Below are positions 782 through 33,015 of a DNA stretch of 64,000 nt, piece after piece (position 1 is the first letter of the stretch; the number at the start of each line of letters is the position of its first letter). Origin of the DNA: Nitrospiraceae bacterium (GTDB lineage Bacteria > Nitrospirota > Nitrospiria > Nitrospirales > Nitrospiraceae); assembly GCA_037442105.1 (NCBI GenBank), contig JBBIQV010000003.1, forward strand, positions 63,670 to 127,669, given 5' to 3'. The position numbers and the translations under genes are program-made. The notes under the pieces are model-generated. The model was given only the letters and a program-made list of their open reading frames with translations, did no database searches and was not told the origin of the DNA.

Positions 782-2002
782 ATGACACATGCTCGAGCAT
801 ATCTTCTCTCACTGCTCGCGCTCATCGGCGTGAGCCTGGTCGGGGTGGATGCCCATGCTGCCGCCAACGTGCAATGTCCCGGCGACACGAACGGCGACGC
901 GATCATAGACGCACCGATTCCGGGGCGGCAGATCGTGTGCAAGCACCTCTCGGCCGGCGATGGATTCATCTCCATGGCTGACGGCAAGACCCTCTACATT
1001 TTCGGGTTCTCGGACCTGACGGGAGTTCCTCTGGCGGAAGCCCTGAGCCGGGGGGTTCTCGCGGCCAATTTCACGGCTCCAACGCTGAGTTTCAAGGAAG
1101 GGGACGAGGTCTACCTCACCCTGACCAATGCCGGCACCTTAACCCGTCCGGACCTCTTCGATCCCCACACGGTCCACTACCATGGATATCCGAACGCCGC
1201 CCCGGTGTTTGACGGGGAGCCGATGGCCTCAATCGCGATCAACCAGCAGTCCAGTCTCACGTACTACTACAACGTCGTCGAACCGGGAACCTTCATGTAT
1301 CACTGCCACGTGGAAGCGACGGAGCACATGCAGATGGGCATGCTCGGCAATCTCTACGTCCATCCCAGACAAGACGGCACGTCCTACACGTTCGGGGGAA
1401 AGACCTTTACGAAGTTCGCCTACAACGACGGCGACGGCTCGACCGGCTACGACGTGGAATATCCCATTCAGATCGGTTCGATGGATCCCGTGTTTCACGA
1501 TCTCCATCTCGGAGTCCAGCCGCTGCCCTTCGCGAATATGAAGGATACGTATGCCGTTCTGAACGGGCGCGGTTATCCCGATACCGTGAATCCCAATCCT
1601 CTGCCCCCTCCGGCGGAGAAAGTCGCGGCGGGTCACGCCTCGGCCAACGACTCCTCCCAGCGGGATTCTTCGCTCATCACCGCGACGGCGGGTCAGAAGA
1701 TTCTCCTCCGGATCAGCAATCTGAACGTCACGAAAGACTACACGCTGGCCACGATGGGATTGAGGATGAAAATCGTCGGCATGGGGTCTCATATCCTGCG
1801 CGGGCCAGGAGGCGCCTCGCTCTATTACGAGACGAATAGCGTGACGGTCGGCAGCGGTGAGGCGATGGAGGCTTTGATCGACACCACCGGCGTCGCTCCG
1901 GGCACCTATTTTCTGTATACGACCAATCTGAATTACCTCAGCAACAACGTGGAAGATTTCGGCGGGATGATGACTGAAATCAGAATCCTGCCGGGTGCCT
2001 GA
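782..2002 (+). CDS. Secreted two-domain multicopper oxidase subunit A (complete type-1 Cu site and half of the trinuclear-site ligands in domain 1)
   Basis: RBS aggagg before ATG 782; Sec signal ending AHA. Motifs HTVHYHG and YHCHVEATEHMQMGM. Domain 2 lacks the His motifs. Confidence 0.85.
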   Translation: MTHARAYLLSLLALIGVSLVGVDAHAAANVQCPGDTNGDAIIDAPIPGRQIVCKHLSAGDGFISMADGKTLYIFGFSDLTGVPLAEALSRGVLAANFTAPTLSFKEGDEVYLTLTNAGTLTRPDLFDPHTVHYHGYPNAAPVFDGEPMASIAINQQSSLTYYYNVVEPGTFMYHCHVEATEHMQMGMLGNLYVHPRQDGTSYTFGGKTFTKFAYNDGDGSTGYDVEYPIQIGSMDPVFHDLHLGVQPLPFANMKDTYAVLNGRGYPDTVNPNPLPPPAEKVAAGHASANDSSQRDSSLITATAGQKILLRISNLNVTKDYTLATMGLRMKIVGMGSHILRGPGGASLYYETNSVTVGSGEAMEALIDTTGVAPGTYFLYTTNLNYLSNNVEDFGGMMTEIRILPGA

Positions 2003-2038
2003 TGCGCCTGTGGAAGGAATTGAAGAAGGAGACCAGCA

Positions 2039-3325
2039 ATGATGCACACAATTAGGAGAATGGCCCGGCTCGGTTCGCTTTTCGTCACGCTGGTCGGTGT
2101 GATGCTGTCGGCCACACCGTCGAATGCCGTAGTCGATGGAGTGCCGGGGCCGACCTTCGCCCTTGTCGCAAAGGCCGGATACATCTCGACAGGCGATGGA
2201 CAGAGCTTACTCGCCTGGGGTTACGCCAACGGTGCTGGCCTGATGCAATATCCCGGTCCCACGCTGATCGTGAACCAAGGGGACACGGTGTCAATCACGC
2301 TCACGAATGAGTTGAGCGTCCCGGTGTCGATCGTGTTTCCTGGACAGCAGAATGTGCAGGCCAGCGGTGGAAACGCCGGCACGCTCACGCGTGAAGCGCC
2401 GGCCGGCGCTCCGGCGACCCCGGGTGGGCCGGTGACCTATACCTTCATCGCCTCGCGCCCCGGCACCTATCTCTATCACAGCGGGACCCAACCGGAGTTG
2501 CAGGTGGAGATGGGGCTTGTCGGCGCGTTGGTCGTGCGGCCGACCGGTGCCGATCCTCTTCACCATGCCTATGACCATCCGAACACAGCGTTCGACCACG
2601 AATATCTTTTTCTTCTGACGGAGATGGACCCGAACATCCATCGGTTGATGGATCTGGGATTGGGGAGTCAGGTCGATTTCACCAAGTACCATCCCACGCT
2701 CTGGTTCATCAACGGGCGAAACGGCCCGGATACCATGGCGGCTGCTGCAGCGCCGTGGTTTCCGCACCAACCCTACAACTGTCTGCCGTTGATGCATCCG
2801 GGCAATAAAGTGCTCTTGCGTCTCATCGGCGCGGGTCGAGACCGGCATCCGTTTCATCACCATGGGAACAATACGTGGGTGATTGCGCGCGATGGACGAA
2901 TGTTGCAAAGCGTGTCAGGAGTCGGTCCCGACCTGGCCGAATCCAACTTCACTATTCTGACTGTGCCTGGGGAGACGGTCGACGCCATTTTCGAATGGAA
3001 CGGCAAAGGGTTGGGTTGGGACATCTACGGCCATACCAGCACGGACCCGCTCGAACCGAATGAGTATGCGCCGGATCATGGCAAGCCCCTCCCGGCGACG
3101 TTGCCCGAGCTTCAGAGTCTCACGTTGGGCGAGGCCTGGAGCGGCAGTCCGTTTCTTGGAAAGGTGGAACCGTTACCGCCCGGCCAAGGGGGGATGAACC
3201 CGTTGGGGGCATTCCCGTTCATGTGGCATTCGCATAACGAAGTGGAACTGGTCAATGACGACATTTTCCCCGGCGGGATGTTGACCATGATGCTGGTGCT
3301 GCCACCGAGTGCACCGATTCCTTGA
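2039..3325 (+). CDS. Secreted two-domain multicopper oxidase subunit B (His motifs in domain 2 only, no T1 Cys)
   Basis: Signal peptide; cupredoxin-type PGPTLIVNQGD; degenerate YLYHSG; HPFHHHG and MWHSHN in domain 2. Confidence 0.85.
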   Translation: MMHTIRRMARLGSLFVTLVGVMLSATPSNAVVDGVPGPTFALVAKAGYISTGDGQSLLAWGYANGAGLMQYPGPTLIVNQGDTVSITLTNELSVPVSIVFPGQQNVQASGGNAGTLTREAPAGAPATPGGPVTYTFIASRPGTYLYHSGTQPELQVEMGLVGALVVRPTGADPLHHAYDHPNTAFDHEYLFLLTEMDPNIHRLMDLGLGSQVDFTKYHPTLWFINGRNGPDTMAAAAAPWFPHQPYNCLPLMHPGNKVLLRLIGAGRDRHPFHHHGNNTWVIARDGRMLQSVSGVGPDLAESNFTILTVPGETVDAIFEWNGKGLGWDIYGHTSTDPLEPNEYAPDHGKPLPATLPELQSLTLGEAWSGSPFLGKVEPLPPGQGGMNPLGAFPFMWHSHNEVELVNDDIFPGGMLTMMLVLPPSAPIP

Positions 3326-3394
3326 GAATAACGGCTGCTAACTGAGAATTTGAACGCGGCGAGTTTTTACAACAATCAAGCGGGAGTGACGGCG

Positions 3395-6300
3395 ATGCGC
3401 ATGCTTAACGGGTTGTTCAGAAGGTTGGGGTTGGCACTGGCCGGGGTCGCGCTCATGTGCGCGCCCGCATGGTCGATCGACTACTACCTCCAGGCTGAGC
3501 GCTTTCTGATGACGATGCCTGATGGGACCAGCGCTCCGATGTGGGGCTATGCGCAATATAGCGATAACACGTTCACAACCCTGGTCAAACCGGCGTCCGT
3601 GCCGGGTCCCCTGCTTGAAGTGCCGGCCGGGGACTTGTCGGGGCTCACGATCCATCTGAAAAACAACCTTCCGACTCTCAACGGTCAGCCGGTCCCGACG
3701 TCGATCGTCATTCCGGCACAGCCTGCCGCCTTAGCGCCGGCGACGTTTACGGATGCGCAGGGTCGCACAAGGGTCCGGTCGTTTACGACGGAAACCGCTC
3801 CGGGGACGGTCGGAATCTATAGTTGGCCGACCCTCAAGCCGGGCACATACCTGTATGAGAGCGGGACCCATCCACAAGTTCAGATCCAGATGGGGCTGTA
3901 TGGCGCAGTAGTACGTGACTCCGCCTCCGCCCCCCTCGAGGCCTATCCGGCGATTCCGTATACCGCACACCACGTATTGCTTTTCAGTGAAGTGGATCCA
4001 ACCCTGCACGCGGCGGTCGATAACAATACCTATGGGACCCCTCCGATTACGAGCACGATCAATTATGTCCCAAAGTATTTCCTCGTCAATGGAGCTGCTT
4101 ATGGTCAGACCACGGCGCAAATCGATGCCGGCCAAACCGGTGACCGAGTGCTGTTGAGACTCCTGAATGCAGGATTAGAGTCCCACGTGCCCACCCTCCT
4201 GGGAGCCTACTTCCAGCTTGTGGCGGAGGATGGGAGCCCTCTGCCGTACCCAAAGGAGCAGTATGCGGCGCACCTGGCAGCGGGAAAAACGCTCGATGCG
4301 ATTTGGACACCCGCGACCGATGGCGTGTACCCGATTTATGACCGGCGCTTGCGGCAAGGAATGCTCGCGCAGCTCGCGGTGGGAACGAACCGTCCGCCTG
4401 TCATTACCTCCGCGCCGGTGACCACGGCGACAGTGGGCATTGCCTATAGCTATCAGGTACTCGCCACAGATCCGAACGCGGGCGATGTGCTGACCTATAG
4501 CCTGACGACGGCACCGACCGGCATGACGATCAGCGTCACCGGCTTGATTGGTTGGACCCCAACGGCGGCGCAAGTTGGGCCCCAGGCGATGACGGTACGG
4601 GTGCAGGACCAGGGTGGGCTGTTCGTAACCCAGTCCTTCACGGTGACGGTAGCGGCGGCCAATATCGCGCCGGCTATCACCTCGACGCCGATCCTCACGG
4701 CGGCAGCAGGCACAGCCTATAGCTACCAGGTGGTGGCGACCGATCCGAACGTGGGTGACGTGCTGACCTATAGCCTGACGACGGCACCCACCGGCATGAC
4801 GATCAGCGCCACCGGCTTGATTGGTTGGACGCCGACGGCGGCGCAGGCCGGCCCTCAGGCCGTCACGGTACGGGTGCAGGACCAGGGCGGGCTGTTCACT
4901 ACGCAGAGCTTCACCGTAACAGTCGCGGCAGCCGGCCCGGCGGTCGTCAGCATCACGCTGCGTAACGCCACTGCTGCCGGAGATCCGATTATTGTTCAAC
5001 CTCTGGTCAATGGGGCAGACCTCAACCTGAGCGCGCTCTGCGGCGGCTGCCAGGTAAATTTCCAGGCCGTCACCTCGCCGGCAACGATCACGGGCGGGAG
5101 CGTCAGGCTGGTTCTGACCGGCGCGACGGCTCAGGCTCGGAATGACAACACAAACCCCTACACACTGCCGGCCAATCCAGGTGGCAACTATGCGGGGATC
5201 ACATTGAACCCCGGTTCGCACACCCTCACCGCGACACCCTATAGCGGGACCAATGCTACGGGAACCCCGGGCACGCCTTTGACGATCACGTTCACGGTAG
5301 GGGCTGCGAATGTGGCGCCGGCGATTACTTCGACAGCGATCACGACAGCGGTAGCCACCTATCCCTATAGCTATCAGGTCGCTGCGACCGATCCGAACGC
5401 GGGCGACACGCTGACCTATAGTCTGACGGCGGCGCCCGCCGGCATGACGATCAGCGGAACCGGCTTGATCAGTTGGACGCCGACGGCGGCCCAGGTGAGT
5501 CCGCCGCAGCCATTGGTCACGGTACGGGTGCAGGATCAGGGAGGCCTGTTCGCCACCCAATCCTTCAACATCGCAGTGGCAGCCAACCAGGCACCGGCGA
5601 TCACCTCGACGATACCGCCCACGACAGCCACAGTGGGTGTGGCCTACAGCTATCAAGTGGTGGCGACGGACCCGAATGCGGGAACGACGTTGACCTACAG
5701 TCTCACCACTGCGCCGGCGGGCATGACGATCAGTGCCACTGGTTTGATCAGTTGGACGCCGACGGCGGCGCAAGTCGGCCCGCAAGCCGTGACGGTACGG
5801 GTGCAGGATCAGGGCGGGCTGTTTGCCACCCAATCCTTCACCGTGACGGTTGCAGGCACTCCGCCGCCGCTTCCGGCCGGCTTAGTGGCGGCTTATGCCT
5901 TCAATGAAGGGACCGGCACGACGGTGGCCGATGCCACGGGCCGTGGTCACACCGGGACTTTCGTCGGAGCCACCTGGACTCCGTCCGGCCGGTACGGGGC
6001 GGCTCTGGTGTTCAATGGAACCAATGCGCGGGTGACAGTCCCCGATGCGGCAGATCTGGATCTGACCACCGGCGTGACGCTGGAAGCCTGGGTCTACCCA
6101 ACAGCGGCCGGTGGCGGCGCCTGGCGGACCGTAATCACCAAAGATAATGCGGCAAATATCTCCTACCTCCTCTATGCCAATACGGACACAAACAATCCGG
6201 GGATGTTTGTGGGCGGCACCTGGCAGCAGCAAGTCGTGGGTGGCTCGACACTAGCGGCCAATGTCTGGACGCACCTGGCGGGTACCTACGACGGCGCCAC

Positions 6301-6502
6301 CATCAGGTTGTACGTCAACGGAGTGCAGGTTGCCAGTCGGGCGCAAACCGCGCCGATCGCGACGAACAATGATCTGCTCTCCATCGGCGGCAGCAGCGTG
6401 TGGGGCGAATGGTTCGCCGGCCGGCTCGATGAGCTGCGCATCTACAACCGCGCGCTCACGGCGGCGGAGATTCAGGCAGATAGCGCAGCACCGCTGCCGT
6501 GA
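3395..6502 (+). CDS. Secreted MCO-like protein lacking the canonical Cu-ligand motifs, fused to four Ig-like (putative Ig/cadherin-like) repeats, an inserted beta domain and a C-terminal LamG domain
   Basis: RBS gggag before ATG 3395; signal peptide; PGPLLEV and YLYESGTHPQVQIQMGLYG (degenerate cupredoxin). Four NxxPxITS...YSYQVxATDPN...VRVQDQGG repeats; LamG tail. Confidence 0.85.
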   Translation: MRMLNGLFRRLGLALAGVALMCAPAWSIDYYLQAERFLMTMPDGTSAPMWGYAQYSDNTFTTLVKPASVPGPLLEVPAGDLSGLTIHLKNNLPTLNGQPVPTSIVIPAQPAALAPATFTDAQGRTRVRSFTTETAPGTVGIYSWPTLKPGTYLYESGTHPQVQIQMGLYGAVVRDSASAPLEAYPAIPYTAHHVLLFSEVDPTLHAAVDNNTYGTPPITSTINYVPKYFLVNGAAYGQTTAQIDAGQTGDRVLLRLLNAGLESHVPTLLGAYFQLVAEDGSPLPYPKEQYAAHLAAGKTLDAIWTPATDGVYPIYDRRLRQGMLAQLAVGTNRPPVITSAPVTTATVGIAYSYQVLATDPNAGDVLTYSLTTAPTGMTISVTGLIGWTPTAAQVGPQAMTVRVQDQGGLFVTQSFTVTVAAANIAPAITSTPILTAAAGTAYSYQVVATDPNVGDVLTYSLTTAPTGMTISATGLIGWTPTAAQAGPQAVTVRVQDQGGLFTTQSFTVTVAAAGPAVVSITLRNATAAGDPIIVQPLVNGADLNLSALCGGCQVNFQAVTSPATITGGSVRLVLTGATAQARNDNTNPYTLPANPGGNYAGITLNPGSHTLTATPYSGTNATGTPGTPLTITFTVGAANVAPAITSTAITTAVATYPYSYQVAATDPNAGDTLTYSLTAAPAGMTISGTGLISWTPTAAQVSPPQPLVTVRVQDQGGLFATQSFNIAVAANQAPAITSTIPPTTATVGVAYSYQVVATDPNAGTTLTYSLTTAPAGMTISATGLISWTPTAAQVGPQAVTVRVQDQGGLFATQSFTVTVAGTPPPLPAGLVAAYAFNEGTGTTVADATGRGHTGTFVGATWTPSGRYGAALVFNGTNARVTVPDAADLDLTTGVTLEAWVYPTAAGGGAWRTVITKDNAANISYLLYANTDTNNPGMFVGGTWQQQVVGGSTLAANVWTHLAGTYDGATIRLYVNGVQVASRAQTAPIATNNDLLSIGGSSVWGEWFAGRLDELRIYNRALTAAEIQADSAAPLP
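4388..5855 (+). repeat. Four ~270-bp intragenic Ig-like repeat units (approx. 4388-4660, 4661-4930, 5309-5585, 5585-5855)
   Basis: Recurrent DNA and peptide blocks, e.g. ctgacctatagcctgacgacggcacc and gtacgggtgcaggaccaggg. Confidence 0.85.
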
Positions 6503-6545: not shown

Positions 6546-7058
6546 ATGGCGATGCAGAAGAGTCAACCAGCGGCTGGGACTGCTCGGTTTGCCAACGGAC
6601 TACTCGGGACGGTGTGGAGGGTGGCGTTCAGTTTGACCCTCGCCACAGCCGGTTCTGCCGGTGCTCATGGGGGGGACCATGGGCCTTTCACCACCCGGTC
6701 CGTGTCGCCGGTGCAGCGACTGGCCATCGAACAGGCCTGGGGCATCAGCGTGGAAGGAATCCGGCTGACGGCCGCCGGCCATATGTTGGATTTTCGTTAC
6801 CGCGTGCTCGATCCGGGGAAGGCCGGGCGACTGATCCATCCGAAGATGGGGCTGCTCGTCATTGAGGAGAAGAGTGGAGCCGAATTGCCCGTTCCGACCA
6901 TGACCAAAGTCGGTGCGCTCAAGCAAACCAGGAGTCATTTACATCCGGAACGGACCTATTCGGTCCTCTTTGCCAATCTGAACGGCAAGGTCAAAGCGGA
7001 TGCCGTCGTGACGGTCATGTTGGGTGACCTGAGGATCGAACACCTGGTGGTTGAATAG
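6546..7058 (+). CDS. Exported hypothetical protein associated with the MCO cluster
   Basis: RBS gaggag near ATG 6546/6552; signal-like segment ending AGA, followed by HGGDH; compact beta-rich domain. Confidence 0.7.
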   Translation: MAMQKSQPAAGTARFANGLLGTVWRVAFSLTLATAGSAGAHGGDHGPFTTRSVSPVQRLAIEQAWGISVEGIRLTAAGHMLDFRYRVLDPGKAGRLIHPKMGLLVIEEKSGAELPVPTMTKVGALKQTRSHLHPERTYSVLFANLNGKVKADAVVTVMLGDLRIEHLVVE

Positions 7059-7069
7059 AGGGTATTGCT

Positions 7070-8875
7070 ATGAAGGCTTGGTGGGTTCGTCTCGCGGCGT
7101 TAGCCTGTGGCTGTTTTCTGGCGTGGGATGGTCACGCCGCGGTGATTGCTCCTGAACTCGACGCGGCGATGCAGTCGCCGGGCGCGGGAGAGGAAATTCC
7201 AATAATTGTGACCTTCCATAAAAAGGTCGACCCCAAGTCCTTCAAAGACGACGATAAACGGGTGCGGCGTTTCAAGCTTCTTCAGGCTCTCAAGCGGGAA
7301 GCGGAGGGGGAACATAAATCGGTTCGGATCTTCGCCGAGGGAAGGGGAGGAAAAAAGATCAAGCATCTATGGGCCGGTCGCGCGCTGGCGTTAACCGCCT
7401 GTCCGGATGTCATTCGGGTGCTTGCCTCGCTGCCGAGTGTGGAGTCCATCAGGTTGGATGCGGTCATCCATGCTCCGACCACGACCTATGTGTCTACTGC
7501 CACGCCTGAATGGAACATCAGCGCTGTCAAGGCGCCTGACCTGTGGAGCCTTGGGTTTAAAGGACAGGGTGTGGTCGTGGCGAATCTGGATACAGGGGTA
7601 GATGCTCAGCATCCCGACCTTTCGACGCAATGGCGTGGCGGGACCAACAGTTGGTACGACCCGAACAGCGAACACCCGACGCCGCACGATGCCGACGGCC
7701 ATGGCACGCAGACGATGAGCTTGCTCGTCGGGCGCGCCGCCGGAGGTACGGCGATCGGGATGGCTCCCGATGCGAAGTGGATTGCCGCAAAAATTTTCAA
7801 TGATGCGGGTTTGTCGCAGGAGAGCGTGATCCACCAGAGCTTGCAGTGGGTGCTCGATCCGGACGGCAATCCGGCGACGGACGATGCGCCGGACGTCGTG
7901 AACCTGTCGTGGGGGCTCTCGGGGGTGAACACCTGCAACGCCGTGTTCCAGGCCGAAATGGAGGCTCTGAAGACGGCCGGGATCTCCGTGGTCTTGTCGG
8001 CCGGCAACTCTGGTCCGAGCGCCTCGACCAGTGTCAGCCCAGCCAATAATCCTGGCCAGATGTCAGCCGGCTCGGTGGACGACCGGCTCAACGTGTCGAC
8101 GTTCAGTAGTCGCGGCCCTTCCGCTTGCGACGGCGGGATTTTCCCGACGGTGGTGGCCCCCGGCGAAAACATCGTGACGGCCGATCTGTCTTTCGGCGGA
8201 CTTGCGGTTTACACGACCGTCGCCGGGACCTCGTTTGCTGCCCCGCACGTCTCCGGGTCGATGGCGCTCCTGTTGAGTGCGGTACCGACCGCCAACGTCG
8301 GCGATCTCGAGTCGGCGGTGACTCGCACGGCTGTCGATCTGGGCACGGCCGGACCCGATCAGGACTCGGGACATGGTCTGATCGATACCCTAGCCGCCTA
8401 TGAAGCACTACGCAACGGCGGGCAGGGGGCCATGGATGCAGACGGTGATGGACATCCCGGTACGGTGGACTGCAACGATCAGAATCCGGCGGTCCATCCC
8501 GGTGAGCGGGAGATCAAGTACGACGGGATTGATCAGGATTGCAACGGCTACGATCTGACCATCACGATCGCGAAGGCGAAGTACAACTCGAAGAAACACC
8601 TGCTGGTCGTTGAGGCCACCAGTGTACTGAGAGCCAATGCCAGGCTGGAACTGGTCGGGTTCGGTCCTATGAGGTGGAACGCCGCGAGAGGACTGTGGGT
8701 GTTCCGGGCGCCGCTGCCGGCAAGTCCTTCTCAGATTACGGTGAAGGGAGTTGAAGGTCAGGAGAGTGCGCTCGTGGCAGCCGGTCAAATCGGGTCGAAG
8801 CCCAAGAACTCGAAGGGCAAGGGCCACCGAGGAGCCGACGCCCATCCGGACGAGGTTGAAGACGACGAGTCCTGA
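7070..8875 (+). CDS. Secreted S8 (subtilisin-like) serine protease with a MopE-like Asp/Cys metal-binding repeat
   Basis: Catalytic triad motifs NLDTG, GHGT and GTSFAAPHV; oxyanion SAGN; DADGDG...DCND...DGIDQDCNG repeat; signal peptide and propeptide. Confidence 0.9.
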   Translation: MKAWWVRLAALACGCFLAWDGHAAVIAPELDAAMQSPGAGEEIPIIVTFHKKVDPKSFKDDDKRVRRFKLLQALKREAEGEHKSVRIFAEGRGGKKIKHLWAGRALALTACPDVIRVLASLPSVESIRLDAVIHAPTTTYVSTATPEWNISAVKAPDLWSLGFKGQGVVVANLDTGVDAQHPDLSTQWRGGTNSWYDPNSEHPTPHDADGHGTQTMSLLVGRAAGGTAIGMAPDAKWIAAKIFNDAGLSQESVIHQSLQWVLDPDGNPATDDAPDVVNLSWGLSGVNTCNAVFQAEMEALKTAGISVVLSAGNSGPSASTSVSPANNPGQMSAGSVDDRLNVSTFSSRGPSACDGGIFPTVVAPGENIVTADLSFGGLAVYTTVAGTSFAAPHVSGSMALLLSAVPTANVGDLESAVTRTAVDLGTAGPDQDSGHGLIDTLAAYEALRNGGQGAMDADGDGHPGTVDCNDQNPAVHPGEREIKYDGIDQDCNGYDLTITIAKAKYNSKKHLLVVEATSVLRANARLELVGFGPMRWNAARGLWVFRAPLPASPSQITVKGVEGQESALVAAGQIGSKPKNSKGKGHRGADAHPDEVEDDES

Positions 8876-8936: not shown

Positions 8937-9377
8937 ATGAAAGCGCGACAACCGAATCCTGTGACGCGGCGGAGCAGCCAGACGGGTTTCACGTTGCTTG
9001 AACTGCTGGTCGTCATGGTGATTATCGGACTGCTGGCAGGCTTTGTCGGGCCTCGTTATTTCTCGCAAATCGGCAAGTCCGAAATTAAGGCGGCTCGTGC
9101 TCAGATGGACGCCCTCGAGAAAGCGCTCGATCAATATCGTTTAGATGTCGGGAAGTATCCTTCGACCGAGCAGGGACTTGTGGCACTCAATACGGGGCCT
9201 TCCAACGAGCCGAAATGGGGTGGACCGTACTTGAAAAAGGGCGTCCCCCTCGATCCCTGGGGGAAAGCCTATGTGTACAAATATCCGGGCGACCATAACG
9301 AATACGACCTCTTGTCGTTCGGAAAAGATGGACAGCCCGGCGGGACCGGCGAAGGCGAAGACATCAAGAACTGGTAG
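8937..9377 (+). CDS. gspG: Type II secretion major pseudopilin
   Basis: GFTLLELLVV prepilin motif; YRLDVGKYP, W-GPYL, DPWG and GKDGQPGG motifs. Confidence 0.93.
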   Translation: MKARQPNPVTRRSSQTGFTLLELLVVMVIIGLLAGFVGPRYFSQIGKSEIKAARAQMDALEKALDQYRLDVGKYPSTEQGLVALNTGPSNEPKWGGPYLKKGVPLDPWGKAYVYKYPGDHNEYDLLSFGKDGQPGGTGEGEDIKNW

Positions 9378-9389
9378 CAGAAGAGGGTC

Positions 9390-10583
9390 ATGCAGTACCA
9401 GGTGAAAGCGCTCCACGGTTTCGGCGGCATCGAAGGACTGACCGTCGATGCGCTCGACGTGGACGAGGCGAGACGTCAGGTCGAGCGGATGGGCTACCAG
9501 GTCCTGACTCTGAAGCCGAAACGTGAGTGGGCCGGTTTGTCTTTTTCACCTCGATCGCAAACCTTCCCTCTTGTTCTGTTCAGTCAGGAGCTGGTCGCTT
9601 TGCTGGGGGCAGGCCTGTCGCTTCTGGAGGCGCTCGAAACACTCGCCGAAAAGGAACGACGCCCTGATCTCAATCGGATCCTTCAGGACATCTTGACTAA
9701 ACTTCGTGAAGGCCAGCCGCTCTCGGTCGCGCTCCAGCACTTCCCGAGAAGTTTTACGCCGCTGTACGTTGCGACCATCCGGGCGAGCGAGCGGACCGGC
9801 GACCTCGGCGAGGCCCTCACCCGCTTCGTCGTCTATCAATCTCAATTGGAAAGCGTCCGCAAGAAACTCGTCAGTGCGTCGATCTACCCCCTGGTGCTGT
9901 TGGCGACCGGCGGTCTGGTGATGGCGTTCTTACTGTTCTACGTGGTGCCGAAATTCAGCCGTGTCTATGAAGACGTCCGCGGAAATCTCCCGTTCCTCTC
10001 CCAGCTCTTGCTCCAATGGGGAAAATTGCTCGAGGCCCATGGCAGTGAAGTCCTGATGGGGGGACTGCTCGCGATCGCCGGATGTGTCTACGGAATCACG
10101 CGGCCGGCGGTGAAAGGGTGGGCGATTGAACGATTGTGGGCTGTCCCCTCCCTCGGAAGCCGCTGGCACGTCTATGAACTCGCCCGGTTCTATCGCACGC
10201 TCGGCATGTTGCTCAGAGGCGGCATCCCCATCGTGCAGGCGCTCGGCATGGTGGCGGGACTGCTGCCACCCATGCTGCGCAGCCAGCTCTCGCTCGCGAC
10301 CGGCGATATTCGCGAAGGGAAGTCTGTGTCGCATGCGATGGAGCGACGCGGACTGACGACGCCGGTTGCGCTGCGGATGTTGCGCGTGGGCGAGCGCAGC
10401 GGCCAAATGGGCGAGATGATGGAGCGCATTGCCGCATTTTACGACGAGGAAATCGCCCGATGGGTCGAGTGGCTGAGCCGCCTCATCGAACCGGTGTTGA
10501 TGGCGGTGATCGGCCTCGTAATCGGGACGATCGTCGTGCTGATGTACTTTCCCATTTTCGAATTGGCGGGGAGCATTCAATGA
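9390..10583 (+). CDS. gspF: Type II secretion inner-membrane platform protein
   Basis: Two T2SSF domains (ASERTGDL, VGERSGQM), ASIYP and IEPVLM transmembrane segments. Confidence 0.92.
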   Translation: MQYQVKALHGFGGIEGLTVDALDVDEARRQVERMGYQVLTLKPKREWAGLSFSPRSQTFPLVLFSQELVALLGAGLSLLEALETLAEKERRPDLNRILQDILTKLREGQPLSVALQHFPRSFTPLYVATIRASERTGDLGEALTRFVVYQSQLESVRKKLVSASIYPLVLLATGGLVMAFLLFYVVPKFSRVYEDVRGNLPFLSQLLLQWGKLLEAHGSEVLMGGLLAIAGCVYGITRPAVKGWAIERLWAVPSLGSRWHVYELARFYRTLGMLLRGGIPIVQALGMVAGLLPPMLRSQLSLATGDIREGKSVSHAMERRGLTTPVALRMLRVGERSGQMGEMMERIAAFYDEEIARWVEWLSRLIEPVLMAVIGLVIGTIVVLMYFPIFELAGSIQ

Positions 10584-12295
10584 ACGGAACCGTTGTGATG
10601 AAGGAGACCGACCTCGCGCTCGACGTGCAGGCCAGTTTTCCTGTCAGCCTCATTCGCCAGGCGCGGGAGGAGGCCGCGCGTTCCAACCGGCGGGTGGTTG
10701 AAGTGTTGGAGGAGCAGACGGGGCTTGCTCCGGCTGCCTTCGTGTCCGCGCTTGCAGCCACGTTTCACTACCCTGCTTTACCGGCTGATGCCCTGAACCG
10801 GCTCACCCCCGACTTTCAGTTGCTGCCGTACTCTGAGGCGCTCAAGTGCGAGTGCATGGCCGTCCGCGACCACGAACGGCGCCTGGGGATCGCCTTTTGG
10901 GACCCGTTTGAGCCGGCGCGGCAAGCCGGGCTGGAACAGCGGATCGCCGAGCCCTTCGTGTGGCACCTCGTGCACCGCGCGGACTTTAGCGCGTACCTCG
11001 GGCGGTACGAAGAGTCGCTCCGCGCGATGGACGGTCTGGTGCGCGACGCGGAACAGGAGCATCGCACGGCCGGGGCCGTCGAGGACCTGTCCATCAAGTC
11101 CATCAGCGTGGATACCAGTCCCGTCGTCAAACTTGTTCACTCGACCATCTACGATGCGCTGAAGGCCGGCGCGAGCGACATCCATTTGGAGACGGGGCCG
11201 AGCGGCCTCAAGATCAAGTACCGGATCGACGGGATGCTGGCTTCCGTGGGAGGGGTGGAAGGCCTCGATCTCGCCGAGCAGATCATCTCCCGCATCAAGG
11301 TCATGGCGGATCTCGACATTGCGGAGCACCGGATTCCTCAGGACGGGCGGTTCAAGCTGGCGATCAGGGGAAGGACGGTGGATTTCCGCGTCTCGATCAT
11401 GCCCAGCGCCTATGGCGAAGACTCCGTCGTGCGGATCTTGGACAAGCAATCCCTTGCGGACAGAATTCTGGGCCTGCGTCTCGACAGTCTGGGATTCGAT
11501 GAGGTTGCGGTGACCCAGTTGCGACGCCTCGCCTCCGAGCCCTATGGCATGATGCTGGTCACCGGTCCGACCGGCAGCGGAAAGACGACCACTCTCTATG
11601 CCGTGCTCAGTGAGATCAACAAGGGCCACGACAAGATCATCACCATCGAGGACCCGGTGGAGTATCAGTTGCCGGGTATTCTGCAGATTCCTGTGAACGA
11701 GAAGAAGGGACTCACTTTTTCCCGAGGTCTGCGCTCGATCCTGCGGCACGACCCGGACAAAATCATGGTCGGCGAGATCCGCGATTCCGAAACCGCGCAA
11801 ATCGCCGTTCAGTCGGCCCTGACGGGGCATCTCGTGTTCGCCACCGTCCACGCCAACAACGTGCTGGACATCATCGGTCGCTTCATCCACATGGGGGTGG
11901 ACCCGTATAACTTTGTCTCGGCGTTGAACGGCGTTATGGCGCAGCGTCTGATTCGGCTGGTCTGCGCGAGCTGTGCCGAACCGGATCGCACGTCTCCAAA
12001 GGCGCTCGCTGCTTCCGGCCTGGCCGGGGAACACGTCGCCTCCTTCCATTTCCGGATCGGCCGAGGCTGCGGGCAGTGTCACGGCAGCGGCTACAAGGGG
12101 CGGAAGGCCATTACCGAGATCCTTCATCTGAACGACGATATCCGCGAGCGCATTATCGCGAAGGAGCCGATCCGCCGGATCAAGGAGGCAGCGCGCGCAT
12201 CCGGCATGCGGTTCTTGCGCGAAGCGGCGCTGGAGCTTGTACGCAACGGCGAAACGACGCTGGAGGAGATCAACCGTGTCACTTTTGTGGCGTGA
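10580..12295 (+). CDS. gspE: Type II secretion ATPase
   Basis: ASDIHLE, RIPQDGR, Walker A GPTGSGKTTT, TIEDPVE, LRHDPDKIMVGEIRD, CxxC...CxxC zinc motif. Confidence 0.95.
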   Translation: MNGTVVMKETDLALDVQASFPVSLIRQAREEAARSNRRVVEVLEEQTGLAPAAFVSALAATFHYPALPADALNRLTPDFQLLPYSEALKCECMAVRDHERRLGIAFWDPFEPARQAGLEQRIAEPFVWHLVHRADFSAYLGRYEESLRAMDGLVRDAEQEHRTAGAVEDLSIKSISVDTSPVVKLVHSTIYDALKAGASDIHLETGPSGLKIKYRIDGMLASVGGVEGLDLAEQIISRIKVMADLDIAEHRIPQDGRFKLAIRGRTVDFRVSIMPSAYGEDSVVRILDKQSLADRILGLRLDSLGFDEVAVTQLRRLASEPYGMMLVTGPTGSGKTTTLYAVLSEINKGHDKIITIEDPVEYQLPGILQIPVNEKKGLTFSRGLRSILRHDPDKIMVGEIRDSETAQIAVQSALTGHLVFATVHANNVLDIIGRFIHMGVDPYNFVSALNGVMAQRLIRLVCASCAEPDRTSPKALAASGLAGEHVASFHFRIGRGCGQCHGSGYKGRKAITEILHLNDDIRERIIAKEPIRRIKEAARASGMRFLREAALELVRNGETTLEEINRVTFVA

Positions 12296-13088
12296 TCGGG
12301 TCCAGGCGTTGCTCGGTCCCCATCAGGTAACGCTTGCGCGGTGGCAGCGCGGCCTGCGCGCGCAGGCAGTCGCGCGCACGATCCTGCATCTTTCTCCGCT
12401 CCCTCCGGGTTCGACAAACTGGACGGAGGCTGTGGCGCGGCTCGGAGAGGCTCTGCTGCAGCCGGAATGGTCGAAAGCCGATCTCTCGGTCACCCTCTCG
12501 AATCATCTCGTTCGGTACGCGGTCGTGCCCTGGAACGACCGGCTCAGCGACGAGACGGAGCAGTCGGCGTTCGCGCTCCAGTGCTTTGCAAGGGTGTACG
12601 GGCTGCCGGCGCAGAGCTGCGCGGTTCGGGTCAGTCTCGATAAGGCCGGCTCGCCTTTCCTGGCCGGCGCCGTGGATCGGGGACTGCTGGACGAATTGGA
12701 AAACATTGCCGGTCAATGTGGTCTCAGGCTGCTCTCTGTAAAGCCGTTGCTGATGGAACTCTTTAATCGCTGGCGGAGGCGGTTCACCGAAGCAGTCCAG
12801 TGGGTCTGTATCGTCGAGGAGGGGCTGGTGTGTGCTGCGCTAGTCGGCCGCGATCACTGGATCGTGGTGCGGTCCATGCGGGTTCGATCGGACTGGCCGT
12901 CCGAACTGGTGGCGTTGCTTGAACGCGAGCAGTTCGTCACGGACGACGCATCATTTGCGCAAACAGTGTTCTTGTACGTCGCGAATGGCGTCGATGTCGA
13001 TCTGCCCACGAACCAGTGGGTGGTCCGTCGTCTGTATTGGTCGCCGCAGGATGTGTCCGCGCTCTCGGTGATGCCATGCGTCCGTTGA
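12276..13088 (+). CDS. T2SS assembly-platform protein, GspL/PilM-like cytoplasmic component
   Basis: GTG start after ggagg, overlapping the gspE end; operon position. Function inferred from synteny. Confidence 0.6.
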   Translation: MSLLWRDRVQALLGPHQVTLARWQRGLRAQAVARTILHLSPLPPGSTNWTEAVARLGEALLQPEWSKADLSVTLSNHLVRYAVVPWNDRLSDETEQSAFALQCFARVYGLPAQSCAVRVSLDKAGSPFLAGAVDRGLLDELENIAGQCGLRLLSVKPLLMELFNRWRRRFTEAVQWVCIVEEGLVCAALVGRDHWIVVRSMRVRSDWPSELVALLEREQFVTDDASFAQTVFLYVANGVDVDLPTNQWVVRRLYWSPQDVSALSVMPCVR

Positions 13089-13621
13089 TGCTCGACTACC
13101 GGACCGGGCGGCCCTCCGTGAACGGCCAAGGACTGCTGTGGCTTGCGGCCGGGCTCTCGGTGCTCGTCTCGGTCGGCATGTACTACGTGGAACTGGTTCA
13201 GGGCATCGAACAGTATGGAGGGCGGATCGAGACCCTCCGCTCCTTCGTGTCCCGCAACGTGCAAGGGGAAAAACAGGCGGCAGGGGATGCAAAACTGCTT
13301 CAGGCGGAGATGAAAGAGGCTAAGGCGGTTCTCCGGCGCCTCTCGGTCCCGTGGGATGAATTCTTCCGCGCCTTGGAGGAGGCGACTCGCCGGCACGCGG
13401 AGGGAATCAGGGTTATCGATGTGCAGCCGGACGCGGAAAAGGGACATGTCGTGATCAACGGGGAATCCAAAGATTTCGATGTGCTGCTCGATTATGTCGT
13501 GCAGCTTGGACAGGACGACATTCTGCGTCATGTCCGGCTTGTGAATCATCAGATTCAGCGTGAGGCGCCGGGGAAACCTGTTCGATTCTCGGTCGTCGCG
13601 GAATGGAGGGCCGGGTCGTGA
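13076..13621 (+). CDS. PilN/GspL-periplasmic-like bitopic protein
   Basis: One TM, coiled coil, PWDEFFRALE followed by a ferredoxin-like beta-alpha pattern. Confidence 0.7.
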   Translation: MRPLMLDYRTGRPSVNGQGLLWLAAGLSVLVSVGMYYVELVQGIEQYGGRIETLRSFVSRNVQGEKQAAGDAKLLQAEMKEAKAVLRRLSVPWDEFFRALEEATRRHAEGIRVIDVQPDAEKGHVVINGESKDFDVLLDYVVQLGQDDILRHVRLVNHQIQREAPGKPVRFSVVAEWRAGS

Positions 13622-14301
13622 TTCAAAAGGAGCTCGTCCGGAGCGATGCGCCGCAAGTTCGGATGAACACGGTCCCAGCCGCTGCGTCTGGAACGCTCCC
13701 TGCTCCGGCTGCGCTCCCAGGGAGNNNNNNNNNNNNNNNNNNNTTGTCCACCGGTCGTGTACGGTGGGTTCTTCGTCTCTGGATCATGAGGCTGGGAACG
13801 GTCGGGAAGCTTGGTCTGGGGCTGGCGACACTCGGCGGCGTGTTCTACGTCTCCGCTGTGTTACCGGCTGTGTCTGAACTGCGTGAAGCAAAGGGGGAAC
13901 TGGCGGCGATGCAAGAGCGCGCCCAGCGTGACGCGGTTGTTGCCGCACCGGCCGGTTTGGGGCCGGCGGAAGAATTGGCGAAGTTCTACGGCTTCTTCCC
14001 CTCGGACCAATCTGTGCCGGACGCGCTGCGCACCATCTATCATCTGGGGATGGCGCAGAATCTTCAGCTCGAACAGGCCGACTATCGCGTGACTCTCGAG
14101 GGGCAGAGCCGGCTGTATCGCTACGACATCTCGTTCCCGGTCACAGGGACCTACCCGGAGATCAGGAGGTTTCTCCGGAGCGTGTCGGCAGCGGTGCCGG
14201 CAGCCGCTCTCGATAAGGTGACGTTTGAGCATCGCACGGGCAAACGTGACTTGGTTCAGGCGAAGGTCAGTCTCTTGCTCTTTGCGAAAAGAGACCAATG
14301 A
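13618..14301 (+). CDS. PilO/GspM-like bitopic protein (19-N gap near the 5' end; start uncertain)
   Basis: TM + coiled coil + FPVTGTYPEIRRFL (PilO-type G-Y motif). Confidence 0.7.
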   Translation: MIQKELVRSDAPQVRMNTVPAAASGTLPAPAALPGXXXXXXXLSTGRVRWVLRLWIMRLGTVGKLGLGLATLGGVFYVSAVLPAVSELREAKGELAAMQERAQRDAVVAAPAGLGPAEELAKFYGFFPSDQSVPDALRTIYHLGMAQNLQLEQADYRVTLEGQSRLYRYDISFPVTGTYPEIRRFLRSVSAAVPAAALDKVTFEHRTGKRDLVQAKVSLLLFAKRDQ

Positions 14302-15008
14302 TGGGATTCATCAGTTTGCGCCGGCTCACTCTCTTATGTCTTACGGCACTTGCCCTGAGAGGGTTTGCTCCCTCAGGGGAATCCGATCTGCCGTCCGGCA
14401 GGGTGGAGACTGCAAAACCCGCCGTTGAGGAGACAGCGACGTCGCCGCGCGGGTCGACATACTCTCCAGCCAAGGCTGTGCCGGTCAGCGCCGAACTGTC
14501 GCTTGGCCTGAACCGGCCGGAGCGGAAGCTCACCGAGGCAGAGGTATATGATCTATTCTCTAGAACGTCTCGATCGTCGCAGCCTACCTCACGCAAGCAG
14601 AAGCCCGAACCTAGAGCCGGCGCCACGGTGGAATCGGCTCCTACCGTGCAGCCGGATCCGGTTCTGCAGACGCCGCCTGAGCCTCCGGTGGTCACTGCTG
14701 CGGTTGCACCGCCTGCGGTCGCGCCAGTGGCCCCTCCGCCGCCACCCGTTGTGGTGGCTGCGCCGTTGCCGCCTGCGCCTCCGCCGGCTCCGATCGCTCC
14801 GGTCCTGCCGTTCAAGTATATCGGGAGGATTATGGAGGCGGGCCATTCGGTGTTTTTTCTGACGAAGGACGACAAGCTCTACACCGTGAAGGTCGGCGAT
14901 GAAATCGAGGGGATGTATTACGTTGACGGCGAAATAGGCGGCCAACTGAGGCTGATCTACAAACCGCTCAGTATTGCACAAACCTTAGCCGTGGGAGCGT
15001 CCTCATGA
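14298..15008 (+). CDS. Proline-rich T2SS accessory protein (GspC/PilP-like position)
   Basis: N-terminal hydrophobic segment, poly-Pro/Ala linker, C-terminal LPFKYIG...VKVGD domain; immediately upstream of the secretin. Confidence 0.6.
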   Translation: MMGFISLRRLTLLCLTALALRGFAPSGESDLPSGRVETAKPAVEETATSPRGSTYSPAKAVPVSAELSLGLNRPERKLTEAEVYDLFSRTSRSSQPTSRKQKPEPRAGATVESAPTVQPDPVLQTPPEPPVVTAAVAPPAVAPVAPPPPPVVVAAPLPPAPPPAPIAPVLPFKYIGRIMEAGHSVFFLTKDDKLYTVKVGDEIEGMYYVDGEIGGQLRLIYKPLSIAQTLAVGASS

Positions 15009-17041
15009 ACACAACAATGAAGACGATTCTAGGCCGGTCGCAGCGGTATGTCGTATGGCTCGTCATCGGGGTTGCTTTATCAGCATGTACGGTCGACCGG
15101 CTCTATCAGCAAGCGCTCGTGGATTTCGATTCGGGACGGGTCGAAGAGGGCCTGCAGAAGCTGGAAAATGCCAGCCACCTGGACCCTGACAATCACGCCT
15201 TGCGCGCCGAATTACAGAGGCGGAAAGAATCGATCATCTACCGCTTGCTGCGCGTCGCCGAGACGGCTCGCTCGGCATCCCGGTTCCGGGAAGCCGAAGC
15301 CGGGTATCAGCGCGTGCTGGCTCTCGACGAGAAGAATTCGAGCGCCCGCACCGGGCTCGACCTCATTGAGCAAGGGCGTCGGCATGAGGCTCTCGTGACC
15401 GTTGCCAAGGATCTGCTGAGGCAGAATGATCTCGCCGGGGCTCAGAGCAAGCTGAGTCAGATACTGGTGGCCGATCCAAAGCATGCAGAGGCAATCCGGT
15501 TACTTCATGACATCGAGGATCGCCTGGTCCGAAACGCTTCTGCAAAGCCGGTGGTCAAACCGAAACAAGAGAAGCCGGTGAATCTGGAGTTCCGCGATGC
15601 CAAGCTGGCCATGATGTTTGAAGCCCTGTCGCGCACGAGCGGGATTAATTTCGTGCTGGATAAAGACGTGAAGGGTGACACGAAGGCTTCGATTTTTCTG
15701 AAAGACCTGCCGGTGGACGAGGCGCTCGACTTGATCATCTCGCAGCAAGCACTTCGCAAGAAGGTGCTCAGCGACAATACGATCCTGGTGTATCCCAACA
15801 CTCCCGACAAGCGAAAACAGTACGAGGACCAGATGGTCCGGTCGTTCTACTTGACCCACGCCGATCCCAAACAAGCAATGAATCTCCTTAAGGTCATGCT
15901 CGACACCAAGGTGCTCTTCGTGGACGACCGTTCAAGGCTGGTCATTATGCGGGATACTCCTGAAGCGATCCAGATGGCCGAAAAGCTGATGGGGTCGCTC
16001 GATCTGCCGGAGTCGGAGGTCATGCTGGAGGTCGAGGTGATCGAGATTCAGCGTTCGAAACTGATGGAACTCGGCATCAAGTACCCGACTCAGTGGACAT
16101 TGAGCGCAGCAGCCGCCGCGACGACGGGGGGGACAGCGAGCGCGCTCACCCTCGACCAACTCCTGAAGTTGACCAAAGAACAAGTGAATTCTTCGGCGGT
16201 CAGTGTCACGGCGGATTTCAAGAAGGAGGTCACGGCGGCCGATATCCTGGCAAGTCCTCGGATCAGGGCCCGCAACCGCGAGAAAGCGAAAATCCTCATC
16301 GGCGATCGGGTTCCTGTGATCACAAACGCCGTCACTCCCACGACCGTCGGGTCGAGCGTCGTCACCGGGAGCGTGCAGTATGTCGATGTGGGTCTCAAGC
16401 TCGATGTGGAGCCCGTCATTCATCGCGACAACGATGTCGCCATCAAACTGACGCTCGAAGTCAGCAGCATCGTGCGAGAGATTCTGAACACGATCTCAGG
16501 AACTCAGGCGTACCAGATCGGGACGCGCACCGCCTCCACTCTCCTTCAGCTCAAGGACGGCGAGACTCAGATACTTGCCGGTTTGCTCACCGATGAAGAA
16601 CGCCGGATATCGAGCCGGATTCCCGGCATCGGCGACATTCCGATCCTGGGGCGCTTGTTCTCTTCGCAACGTGACGACAACAGGAAGTCGGAAATTGTCC
16701 TGTCGATCACGCCACATCTGATCCGTGCGGCACCGCACCCTGATCCTCATGCAGCCGAATTTCTGTTCGGGACGGAATCCATGCGCAGCGGTCCGCTCGG
16801 TATGAAACTGCCGGATGAACCGCGGGCTTTTCCGAATCAATCGCGAAGCGCGCCGGCCGTGGCGCCGTCTCCTCCCATGGATGTGCCCTCGCCTGCTGCT
16901 CAACCTCCGGCTCCGCGCGACTTGTTCACGCCGCCCCCGGTGTTCGATCCAGGAGCATCGACGCCGCAGGGGGGGAACCACCCACAGGATTCCGGCGAGC
17001 CGTCGAACTCGGAGCGAATCGTTCCGGAATCGGGAAACTGA
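15005..17041 (+). CDS. gspD: Secretin with lipoprotein signal and N-terminal TPR region
   Basis: Lipobox LSAC; helical repeats; LEFRDA STN/N0 domain; ILASPRI, IGDRVP, IPGIGDIPILGRLFS and ITPH secretin motifs. Confidence 0.9.
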   Translation: MNTTMKTILGRSQRYVVWLVIGVALSACTVDRLYQQALVDFDSGRVEEGLQKLENASHLDPDNHALRAELQRRKESIIYRLLRVAETARSASRFREAEAGYQRVLALDEKNSSARTGLDLIEQGRRHEALVTVAKDLLRQNDLAGAQSKLSQILVADPKHAEAIRLLHDIEDRLVRNASAKPVVKPKQEKPVNLEFRDAKLAMMFEALSRTSGINFVLDKDVKGDTKASIFLKDLPVDEALDLIISQQALRKKVLSDNTILVYPNTPDKRKQYEDQMVRSFYLTHADPKQAMNLLKVMLDTKVLFVDDRSRLVIMRDTPEAIQMAEKLMGSLDLPESEVMLEVEVIEIQRSKLMELGIKYPTQWTLSAAAAATTGGTASALTLDQLLKLTKEQVNSSAVSVTADFKKEVTAADILASPRIRARNREKAKILIGDRVPVITNAVTPTTVGSSVVTGSVQYVDVGLKLDVEPVIHRDNDVAIKLTLEVSSIVREILNTISGTQAYQIGTRTASTLLQLKDGETQILAGLLTDEERRISSRIPGIGDIPILGRLFSSQRDDNRKSEIVLSITPHLIRAAPHPDPHAAEFLFGTESMRSGPLGMKLPDEPRAFPNQSRSAPAVAPSPPMDVPSPAAQPPAPRDLFTPPPVFDPGASTPQGGNHPQDSGEPSNSERIVPESGN

Positions 17042-17053
17042 CCGAGGGTCGTG

Positions 17054-17530
17054 ATGGCGGACGGCAAGAACGGATTCACATTGATCGAACTGGTGATCAC
17101 GGTGTCGATCATCGGCGTCCTGGCCACGGCCGCGCTCCCCCTGGCCAATCTGGTCTCAACGCGGAACAAGGAGCAGGACCTCCGTGTAGCCCTGCGGCAA
17201 CTCCGCGAGGCTATTGATGCGTACCGGCTGGCCGTGGACGAAGGTCGGGTTACCAAAGGGGCTCTCGATTCAGGTTACCCCAAGACGCTTGAATCGTTGG
17301 TCGAGGGCGTGGTGGATGCAAAGAATCCGAAGAAGGCAAAGATCTATTTTCTACGGCGCATTCCCCGCGACCCGATGCACGCGGATCCCTCCGTGCCGGC
17401 GGTCGAGACGTGGGGAATTCGCAGCTATGAAAGTCCGCCGGATGATCCGAGCCCCGGCAACGATGTTTTCGACGTATATTCCCTGTCGCAAGATCAAGGA
17501 CTGAACGGGATTCCATATTCGCAATGGTAG
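17054..17530 (+). CDS. T2SS pseudopilin
   Basis: GFTLIELVIT prepilin motif; YPKTLESLV, LRRIPRDP. Confidence 0.85.
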   Translation: MADGKNGFTLIELVITVSIIGVLATAALPLANLVSTRNKEQDLRVALRQLREAIDAYRLAVDEGRVTKGALDSGYPKTLESLVEGVVDAKNPKKAKIYFLRRIPRDPMHADPSVPAVETWGIRSYESPPDDPSPGNDVFDVYSLSQDQGLNGIPYSQW

Positions 17531-17537
17531 GGGTTTG

Positions 17538-17930
17538 ATGCGCTGGTCCAAACGTCTCACGCACACTGTCGGCTTTACCCTCATTGAACTGCTGGTGGTC
17601 TTGGCCATCATCGCCACCCTGCTGACCCTGACGATGCCCCGCTATGTCCGCACCCTTGAGCGATCGAAGGAGGCGGTGCTCAAAGAGAATCTCTGGACGA
17701 TGCGCGACGCGCTCGACAAATACTACGGCGACGTCGGCCGGTACCCGGATTCTCTGGACGATTTGGTGACGAAGAAATATCTGCGCAATATCCCCCTTGA
17801 TCCTCTCACGGACAGCGCTTCGACATGGCAGGTCGTGTCGCCCGCCGATCCGGATCAAGGATCGGTCTACAACGTCAAAAGCGGGGCTGCAGGAACCGGC
17901 CTCAACGGTGTGGCCTACAATGAGTGGTGA
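17538..17930 (+). CDS. T2SS pseudopilin (GspG-like)
   Basis: GFTLIELLVV motif; DVGRYPDSLDDLV, YLRNIPLDP. Confidence 0.85.
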   Translation: MRWSKRLTHTVGFTLIELLVVLAIIATLLTLTMPRYVRTLERSKEAVLKENLWTMRDALDKYYGDVGRYPDSLDDLVTKKYLRNIPLDPLTDSASTWQVVSPADPDQGSVYNVKSGAAGTGLNGVAYNEW

Positions 17931-32669: not shown

Positions 32670-33015
32670 GACCTGCTATTGATCTACCACGTTACACGCA
32701 ATTCCTGAGCCTAAATCGGAAAATGTGCCCTGATCAGACTGTGTGGTTTTGACCTACCTTTTTGTTCAAAACCGTCTGGGCCTTCTGTGCATGCGCTGAA
32801 AGCCGGAACGTCCAGTCCAGACATTTCAACGACATAAGGAAAGCGTTCCATAGTGGTCCCGGACTTGCTTGCCCTTGATGGGATCAACGGTGGGATTATT
32901 TTCCCAATATTGCTGATTGTCGCTCGTGGGGCGAACACACCAAATTCTAACGATAGGCAGAAGTTGGCTGGCTGCAGGCGTTTGTGAACAGTCTGGCTGG
33001 GTTCTGAACTTGTCG
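32670..33015. promoter_or_regulatory. Divergent promoter region of the porin-cytochrome cluster, with palindromes
   Basis: Non-coding gap between divergent genes; TTGAT-GGG-ATCAA at 32875-32887 and TGGGA-N6-TCCCA at 32891-32906. Confidence 0.4.

Follow-up and report, generated by a model that had tools for sequence, protein, structure and literature searches.

Copper ligands divided between adjacent genes in a putative two-domain multicopper oxidase of a Nitrospiraceae bacterium

Can a copper oxidase be assembled from chains none of which carries a complete active site? The question is raised by a 64,000 nucleotide (nt) stretch of DNA from a Nitrospiraceae bacterium (GenBank assembly GCA_037442105.1, contig JBBIQV010000003.1, positions 63,670–127,669), here called the window, in which three consecutive genes specify proteins with two cupredoxin domains each: gene A (nt 782–2002), gene B (nt 2039–3325) and gene C (nt 3395–6502). 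All genes and motifs of this locus given below are on the forward (+) strand. Judged by its sequence, the cluster is a new and widespread variant of the type C two-domain multicopper oxidases, and lies outside the six-domain family. A literature search returned no paper on a two-domain oxidase whose ligands are divided among genes; subscription papers were not searchable and a prior mention is possible.

By alignment to type C enzymes, gene A encodes a complete type 1 (T1) copper site and one half of a trinuclear site (type 2 and type 3 coppers, T2 and T3), all of it in domain 1. The motif HTVHYH (nt 1166–1183) supplies H129 (T1), H132 (T2) and H134 (T3), and the motif HCH...H...M (nt 1301–1342) supplies H174 and H176 (T3) together with C175, H182 and M187 (T1), alongside the invariant acids E178 and E181. 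Both motifs fall on the ligand positions of 3G5W and 2ZWN in the sequence alignment, and the equivalent places in domain 2 (KDYTLAT and YTTNL) hold no ligands. A preliminary description of the window had placed HxxHxH and HCHxxxxxHxxxxM in domain 1 of A only, and this is confirmed. The eight ligands are invariant in 120 of 120 homologues (the best 120 of 4970 matches) and in all 81 rows of the locus alignment.

Gene B is complementary. Its ligand motifs are HPFHHH (nt 2846–2863), with H270 as a T1 remnant, H273 (T2) and H275 (T3), and H397-S398-H399 (nt 3227–3235), in which two T3 histidines flank a serine at the position of the T1 cysteine. Both motifs align with ligand positions of 3G5W and 2ZWN, the latter with their HDH. 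H273 and H275 are histidine in 77/77 ungapped locus rows (4 gapped), H397 and H399 in 74/74 (7 gapped), and S398 is invariant in 65/65 rows. The equivalent places in domain 1 read PVSIVF and YHSG. The earlier statement that B has its ligands in domain 2 only, without cysteine, therefore stands, except that one variable histidine remains in domain 1 (49/80 rows). In a few loci (G110:C4:251049–252486, L014 and L009) B is broken by a stop or frameshift, from either decay or assembly error.

Gene C begins with a two-cupredoxin unit (about nt 3476–4381), followed by four He_PIG immunoglobulin (Ig) repeats, a further Ig-like segment and a LamG domain (about nt 6014–6475). Pfam returned no Cu-oxidase match for C. 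An AlphaFold2 model of its N-terminal 333 amino acids (aa), built from a 65-row alignment (predicted local distance difference test, pLDDT, 93), nevertheless matches the folds of nitrite reductases (NiR) and two-domain oxidases. The loss of canonical motifs noted previously (SIVIP, YESG, YDRR) is correct, although a variable histidine is kept at the T1 position of domain 2 (50/72 rows). Domain 2 of each chain also has a non-canonical histidine in an E/D-x-D-P-x-x-H helix (A H239, B H201, C H205), which is kept in 65/65, 65/65 and 64/65 rows, respectively, as well as in the intact relative P0302, and may represent a shared extra metal site.

According to passages in two sources (bioRxiv 10.64898/2026.07.28.741245; PMC11761707), the trinuclear ligands of two-domain oxidases are contributed by a pair of neighbouring monomers, each of which provides four. 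Hence, if A or B formed a homotrimer by itself, only half-sites would result. Between them, as had been counted in the preliminary description, A domain 1 and B domain 2 supply by alignment eight trinuclear histidines and one T1 site. The type C enzymes BCO (3G5W), mgLAC (2ZWN) and Nmar_1354 (9CCK) share with the present proteins the fold and ligand positions, with two cupredoxin domains per chain, the T1 site in domain 1 and an H-x-H without cysteine in domain 2. They are, however, one-gene trimers with three centres, whereas here the T1 set (H129, C175, H182, M187) is in domain 1 of A only, and the eight trinuclear histidines are not in one product (A and B carry four each and C carries none), which allows at most one centre. 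The 'heterotrimer' of Nmar_1354, as passages of PMC11761707 describe it, is built from a single gene's product, its dangling domain being either present or absent, while here the chains come from separate genes.

The arrangement was followed through two scans, covering the best 80 of 585 genome loci (main scan) and the best 80 of 549 metagenome loci of a deeper lineage, which has 37% identity to A. B adjoins A in 78/78 testable genome loci and 49/49 testable deep-lineage loci, and C adjoins B in 72/74 (both misses being contig ends) and 31/33, respectively. The complementary split is thus kept in homologous operons and the homologues do not occur singly in either scan, as the heterotrimer first proposed would require. 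In the deep lineage, both histidine motifs are present in 45/46 complete B domains 2 and ligand motifs in 0/31 C genes, with an incidental HDH in 1/80 A domains 2; none of the ligand-free domains in the genome loci has regained a ligand set. By record titles, the genome loci represent at least eight phyla (Pseudomonadota, Nitrospirota, Desulfobacterota, Myxococcota, Acidobacteriota, Bacteroidota, Bdellovibrionota and Hydrogenedentes), and plasmid loci of Cupriavidus, Paraburkholderia and Ralstonia show the same ligand split at about 38–40% identity. The complementary ligands hold over a range of 37–42% identity to A. The nearest named relative among the loci listed is a Nitrospira (69–71%). 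Occurrence is patchy, with the operon in 17/301 genomes of the host's phylum and 1/60 others of its family. A and C accompany the B orthologue in all of the other Nitrospirota genomes that have one (16/16). The split is ancient and fixed, and its pattern does not arise by chance.

The operon order is D-A-B-C-E-F, where D specifies a very large protein, E a small protein and F a subtilase, and is followed in this genome by a type II secretion system (T2SS). A related cluster is found in Sideroxydans lithotrophicus ES-1, the Slit genes of which were named, in the literature searched, only by Keffer et al. 2025 (PMC12016527). According to passages of that paper, the cupredoxin proteins Slit_1816–1818 are induced on magnetite, two of them having typical oxidase motifs and the third being large and motif-less. 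Peptides in its Table S3, compared by eye, match Slit_1818 to A, Slit_1817 to B, Slit_1816 (2873 aa) to a C-D fusion and Slit_1815 to E, so that these identities rest on peptide matches and not on full-length alignment. The passages treat the A and B homologues as ordinary oxidases and contain no role for them, no remark on half-motifs and no 'trimer'. The family as published there, in which three cupredoxin genes lie side by side, the third of them large and without motifs, together with one for a small protein, is also recognisable here, and the order A-B-C(D)-E is common to both clusters and to the Paraburkholderia, Ralstonia and Cupriavidus loci. In the Slit cluster, C is fused to D and a SCO1/SenC gene lies inside, whereas in the window D is separate and upstream, with the subtilase and T2SS genes downstream.

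Gene fusions give further information on which domains belong together. In a sister subfamily, 4/150 representatives (P0328, P0352, P0370 and P0422) are four-domain B-A fusions, in which the histidine motifs of a B-type domain 2 directly precede an A-type domain 1. The pairing of A domain 1 with B domain 2, first suggested from the window, is therefore found joined in single chains. An AlphaFold2 model of P0370 left the interface unresolved (predicted template modelling score, pTM, 0.52; pLDDT <50 at the junction of domains 2 and 3), and its top Foldseek matches to ceruloplasmin, factor V and Mnx (TMq about 0.5, root-mean-square deviation about 9) are a weak hint. B and C are fused through a linker in 6/58 long matches. 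There is no six-domain fusion among the 58 long matches or the 150 representatives. Nor did a credible A-B fusion appear, an absence that is expected if A domain 2 does not face B domain 1. Other fusions join D to A (10/80 genome loci) or C to D (2/80 genome loci and 3/3 plasmid loci). Two apparent fusions, P0246 (B-C) and P0335 (A-B), were discarded as frameshift artefacts because of their out-of-frame stretches, and P0303 and P0325 were rejected as A-B fusions, as each has an intact-type unit joined to a B-type unit, with a C-terminal cupredoxin. P0306 is a double ligand-free unit.

A careful tree of 37 selected rows recovered clades A (100/100), B (99/96), C (100/98) and B+C (100/99), with A branching beside the intact enzymes and the placement of B+C relative to A open. 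In a first, quick tree, A, B and C had formed a group together with three intact enzymes at 98. By the careful tree, B and C are sister paralogues, which agrees with a ring of A·B·C that has a single active site. Intact type C members of the same subfamily are P0302, P0307 and P0316. An additional stand-alone, intact type C two-domain oxidase (L087:1209–2258, G105:C109) gives scores with the domain profiles of A, B and C and is ancestor-like. P0330 and P0347 point to yet another independent split. For the two-gene type of split, searching 401 genomes with P0365 gave no match, which is uninformative.

It is very probable that A and B build one centre in trans, and C is quite likely to be a third ring member; that all three form one ring of two-domain chains with a single trinuclear centre is also likely, if a little less so. 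For this ring we infer a 1:1:1 stoichiometry and the following order. Domain 1 of A, with its T1 copper and four histidines, would face domain 2 of B with its four, creating the single O2-reducing trinuclear centre, and the ligand-free C would take the third place, leaving two dead interfaces (A domain 2 with C domain 1, and C domain 2 with B domain 1). Substrate electrons would enter at the T1 copper of A, cross the His-Cys-His bridge and reduce O2 to water, and each chain would be inactive on its own. In line with such a ring, the segments at the dead interfaces are more conserved than the rest of the domain in A domain 2 (0.80 vs 0.68), B domain 1 (0.81 vs 0.66) and C domain 1 (0.79 vs 0.53). 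Inter-chain covariation over 65 paired rows was powerless, as the intra-chain controls did not rise above background.

Several observations weigh against such a ring. The dead segment of C domain 2 is not specially conserved (0.64 vs 0.61), and the dead interface segments contain core strands in any case. One locus (L086:4959–7305, G016:C71) carries a two-gene split pair, with ligands in domain 1 only and domain 2 only, but no C on its 11 kb contig; this pair branches outside the A and B/C clades and indicates, along with the B-A fusions, that the third gene is dispensable in some cases. The C-D gene lies about 14 kb off or on another contig in G023 and G031. Abundance percentiles in Sideroxydans are 29.5 for the A homologue, 74.8 for B and 79.3 for C-D, which is not what a 1:1:1 complex predicts, although peptide detectability may explain the difference. 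The C-less pair and B-A fusions of the sister subfamily, the unlinking of C-D from A-B and the unequal abundances would all suit an enzyme of A and B alone (AB2, A2B or an open AB pair), with C and D as a separate or loosely attached adhesin or scaffold. This alternative is nonetheless unlikely, given that C is kept in 72/74 and 31/33 testable loci with both cupredoxin domains intact, and that it is the sister of B and in 6/58 long matches fused to it. Far less probable still is that A, B and C are independent homo-oligomers, namely a blue T1 electron carrier, a copper-binding protein and a degenerate structural paralogue. Each chain does form a full two-domain unit and has a signal peptide of its own, and the A and B homologues are described with typical oxidase motifs in the passages of Keffer et al., but four invariant trinuclear histidines in A and the complementary four in B would be left unexplained, as would the B-A fusions and the fact that the genes were never found apart in either scan.

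The three-chain ring could have arisen, most simply, from an intact homotrimer that gave rise to A and a BC precursor, assembled as A(BC)2, followed by duplication of BC; the copy whose domain 2 met a dead domain would then have lost its idle histidines and become C. An ancestral A(BC)2 ring of this kind, with the histidines idle in one BC copy and later lost from it, agrees with the B+C clade.

Ceruloplasmin and MnxG have six cupredoxin domains in a single chain, with a single trinuclear centre, two dead interfaces and T1 sites in even domains. The comparison with these oxidases made in the preliminary description holds for the architecture but not for the ligand layout, which is that of type C: three chains from separate open reading frames (ORFs) replace the single chain, and the T1 site is in an odd domain. 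Unlike in the six-domain oxidases, the gene order A-B-C is moreover not one that a short-linker fusion could use. NirK, which is trimeric, resembles the present proteins in its two-cupredoxin fold with T1 in domain 1 but has a mononuclear T2 site, whereas here there is a trinuclear histidine set, and matches to TIGR02376 are far below its cut-off. NiR folds among the top structural matches and the weak TIGR02376 match might point to a split copper nitrite reductase, yet the scores are only 25–44 bits against a cut-off of 296, there are eight histidines instead of three plus an Asp, and a separate NirK-like gene occurs in the same genome on contig C39. In addition, A H132 is histidine in all rows at the place where NiR has its catalytic Asp. 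The nitrite reduction considered earlier as one possible activity is accordingly unlikely, and a split NiR is scarcely credible.

The function of the complex is predicted, tentatively, to be that of a secreted, stalk-mounted metal oxidase, for which a metal cation or mineral-bound Fe(II)/Mn(II) would be the likeliest substrate. No enzyme assay of any family member was found in the literature. Carboxylates near the T1 copper mark ferroxidases such as Fet3p and ceruloplasmin. Next to the T1 ligands of A, the acids D124, D127, E178 and E181 are unchanged in 65/65 rows, with equivalents also present in deep-lineage A, and the intact relative P0302 lacks most of this acid cluster. Export is predicted from the signal peptides, identified by eye, and from the neighbouring T2SS, which would be the likely route; the leader of A in the window looks Sec-type, and that of a deep-lineage A (L112:5345–6940) twin-arginine-like. 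The Ig/LamG stalks and the giant protein D would hold the complex out from the cell. Copper could be loaded by SCO1/SenC or CopC-CopD where the operon carries them, as in L085 (SCO1/SenC) and in 4/4 deep loci tested (CopC-CopD).

The same architecture might serve another purpose, such as O2 scavenging, the oxidation of Cu(I), phenolics or sulfur/nitrogen species, or the cross-linking of a D/C surface matrix. Lineages named as anaerobes (Desulfobulbus, Desulfatibacillum, Syntrophobacterales, Thermodesulfovibrio) account for many of the hosts, which is awkward for an O2-dependent metal oxidase, and other hosts are methanotrophs, myxobacteria and Burkholderiaceae associated with plants. Adhesin and beta-helix domains occur in D, and induction in late magnetite cultures could mean surface growth; a type C relative oxidises hydroxylamine, according to passages of PMC11761707. 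The invariance of the T1-side acids in both A lineages, as opposed to P0302, and the many hosts among Gallionellaceae, Thiobacillus, Sulfuricella or Rhodoferax speak for a metal substrate, and another role is somewhat less probable than metal oxidation.

A step between homotrimeric two-domain and six-domain oxidases has often been proposed. If the three-chain ring is correct, the cluster would be a living model of that step, in which two of three inter-chain copper centres were lost after duplication. Thousands of stand-alone 'multicopper oxidase' or 'manganese oxidase' annotations would then be half-enzymes in need of co-expression (4970 and 5366 matches at E ≤ 1e-20, paralogues included), and the magnetite-induced Sideroxydans cluster would become directly testable. 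More speculatively, these genes could specify a widespread, so far undescribed class of obligate three-chain oxidases that reached the ceruloplasmin/MnxG design of six domains and one trinuclear centre by duplication and division of ligands without fusion. Such oxidases would be displayed on giant secreted scaffolds and oxidise mineral-bound Fe(II) or Mn(II), and homotrimers of the family would have been split in this way more than once.

The coordinates given previously were too short on both sides of the operon, and gene D and the published Sideroxydans cluster had been overlooked. Gene D starts upstream of the window (G000:C3:58109) and its 3' end, with an Ig repeat and LamG, occupies nt 3–704 (profile match and tail comparison). 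A gap of 100 N lies in D just before the window, and the protein is at least about 2050 aa long, with SdrD_B and beta-helix domains and a C-terminal Ig-LamG tail as in C; the two tails share 87% DNA identity. No sequence relative of D was found in the PDB. Several histidine and cysteine pairs and Asp-rich motifs are strongly conserved in D (L001:14110–19560; 41 rows). Downstream of C are gene E (nt 6546–7058), a small conserved homologue of Slit_1815 for which the profile search gave no named family, gene F (nt 7070–8875), an S8 subtilase with a MopE-like motif, and the type II secretion genes (gspG, F, E, secretin and pseudopilins; nt 8937–18,594), the last two by profile match. In the genome loci, D is present in 74/74 testable cases, E in 61/61 and F in 46/52, and a T2SS also adjoins the operon in L005, L017, L036, L039, L048, L083 and L085. 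Contigs of a related strain, from two runs that are possibly one data set, cover the 3' part of A, the whole of B and the start of C with unchanged junctions, and its C has one Ig repeat fewer. A promoter and terminator scan of the locus gave signals near shuffle level.

The host genome contains other copper proteins, on contigs C10, C22, C25 and C39: MnxG-like, intact two-domain and three-domain oxidases and the NirK-like protein. The first (G000 C10:824–5791, 1656 aa) we take to be MnxG-like from its motif order, and the intact two-domain oxidase has T1 motifs in both domains. As to lifestyle, the host genome, which is 87% complete, yielded no amoA and, for narG, just a weak match below cut-off. 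Further along the window are genes for a diheme cytochrome (nt 23,896–24,669), a porin-like protein with one CxxCH (nt 24,673–26,043), a 24-heme cytochrome (nt 29,898–31,697) and another multiheme ORF (from nt 32,917), which contains an N gap, with a ccm cluster nearby. This multiheme region (nt 23,896–46,000) is possibly an extracellular electron-transfer island close to the operon.

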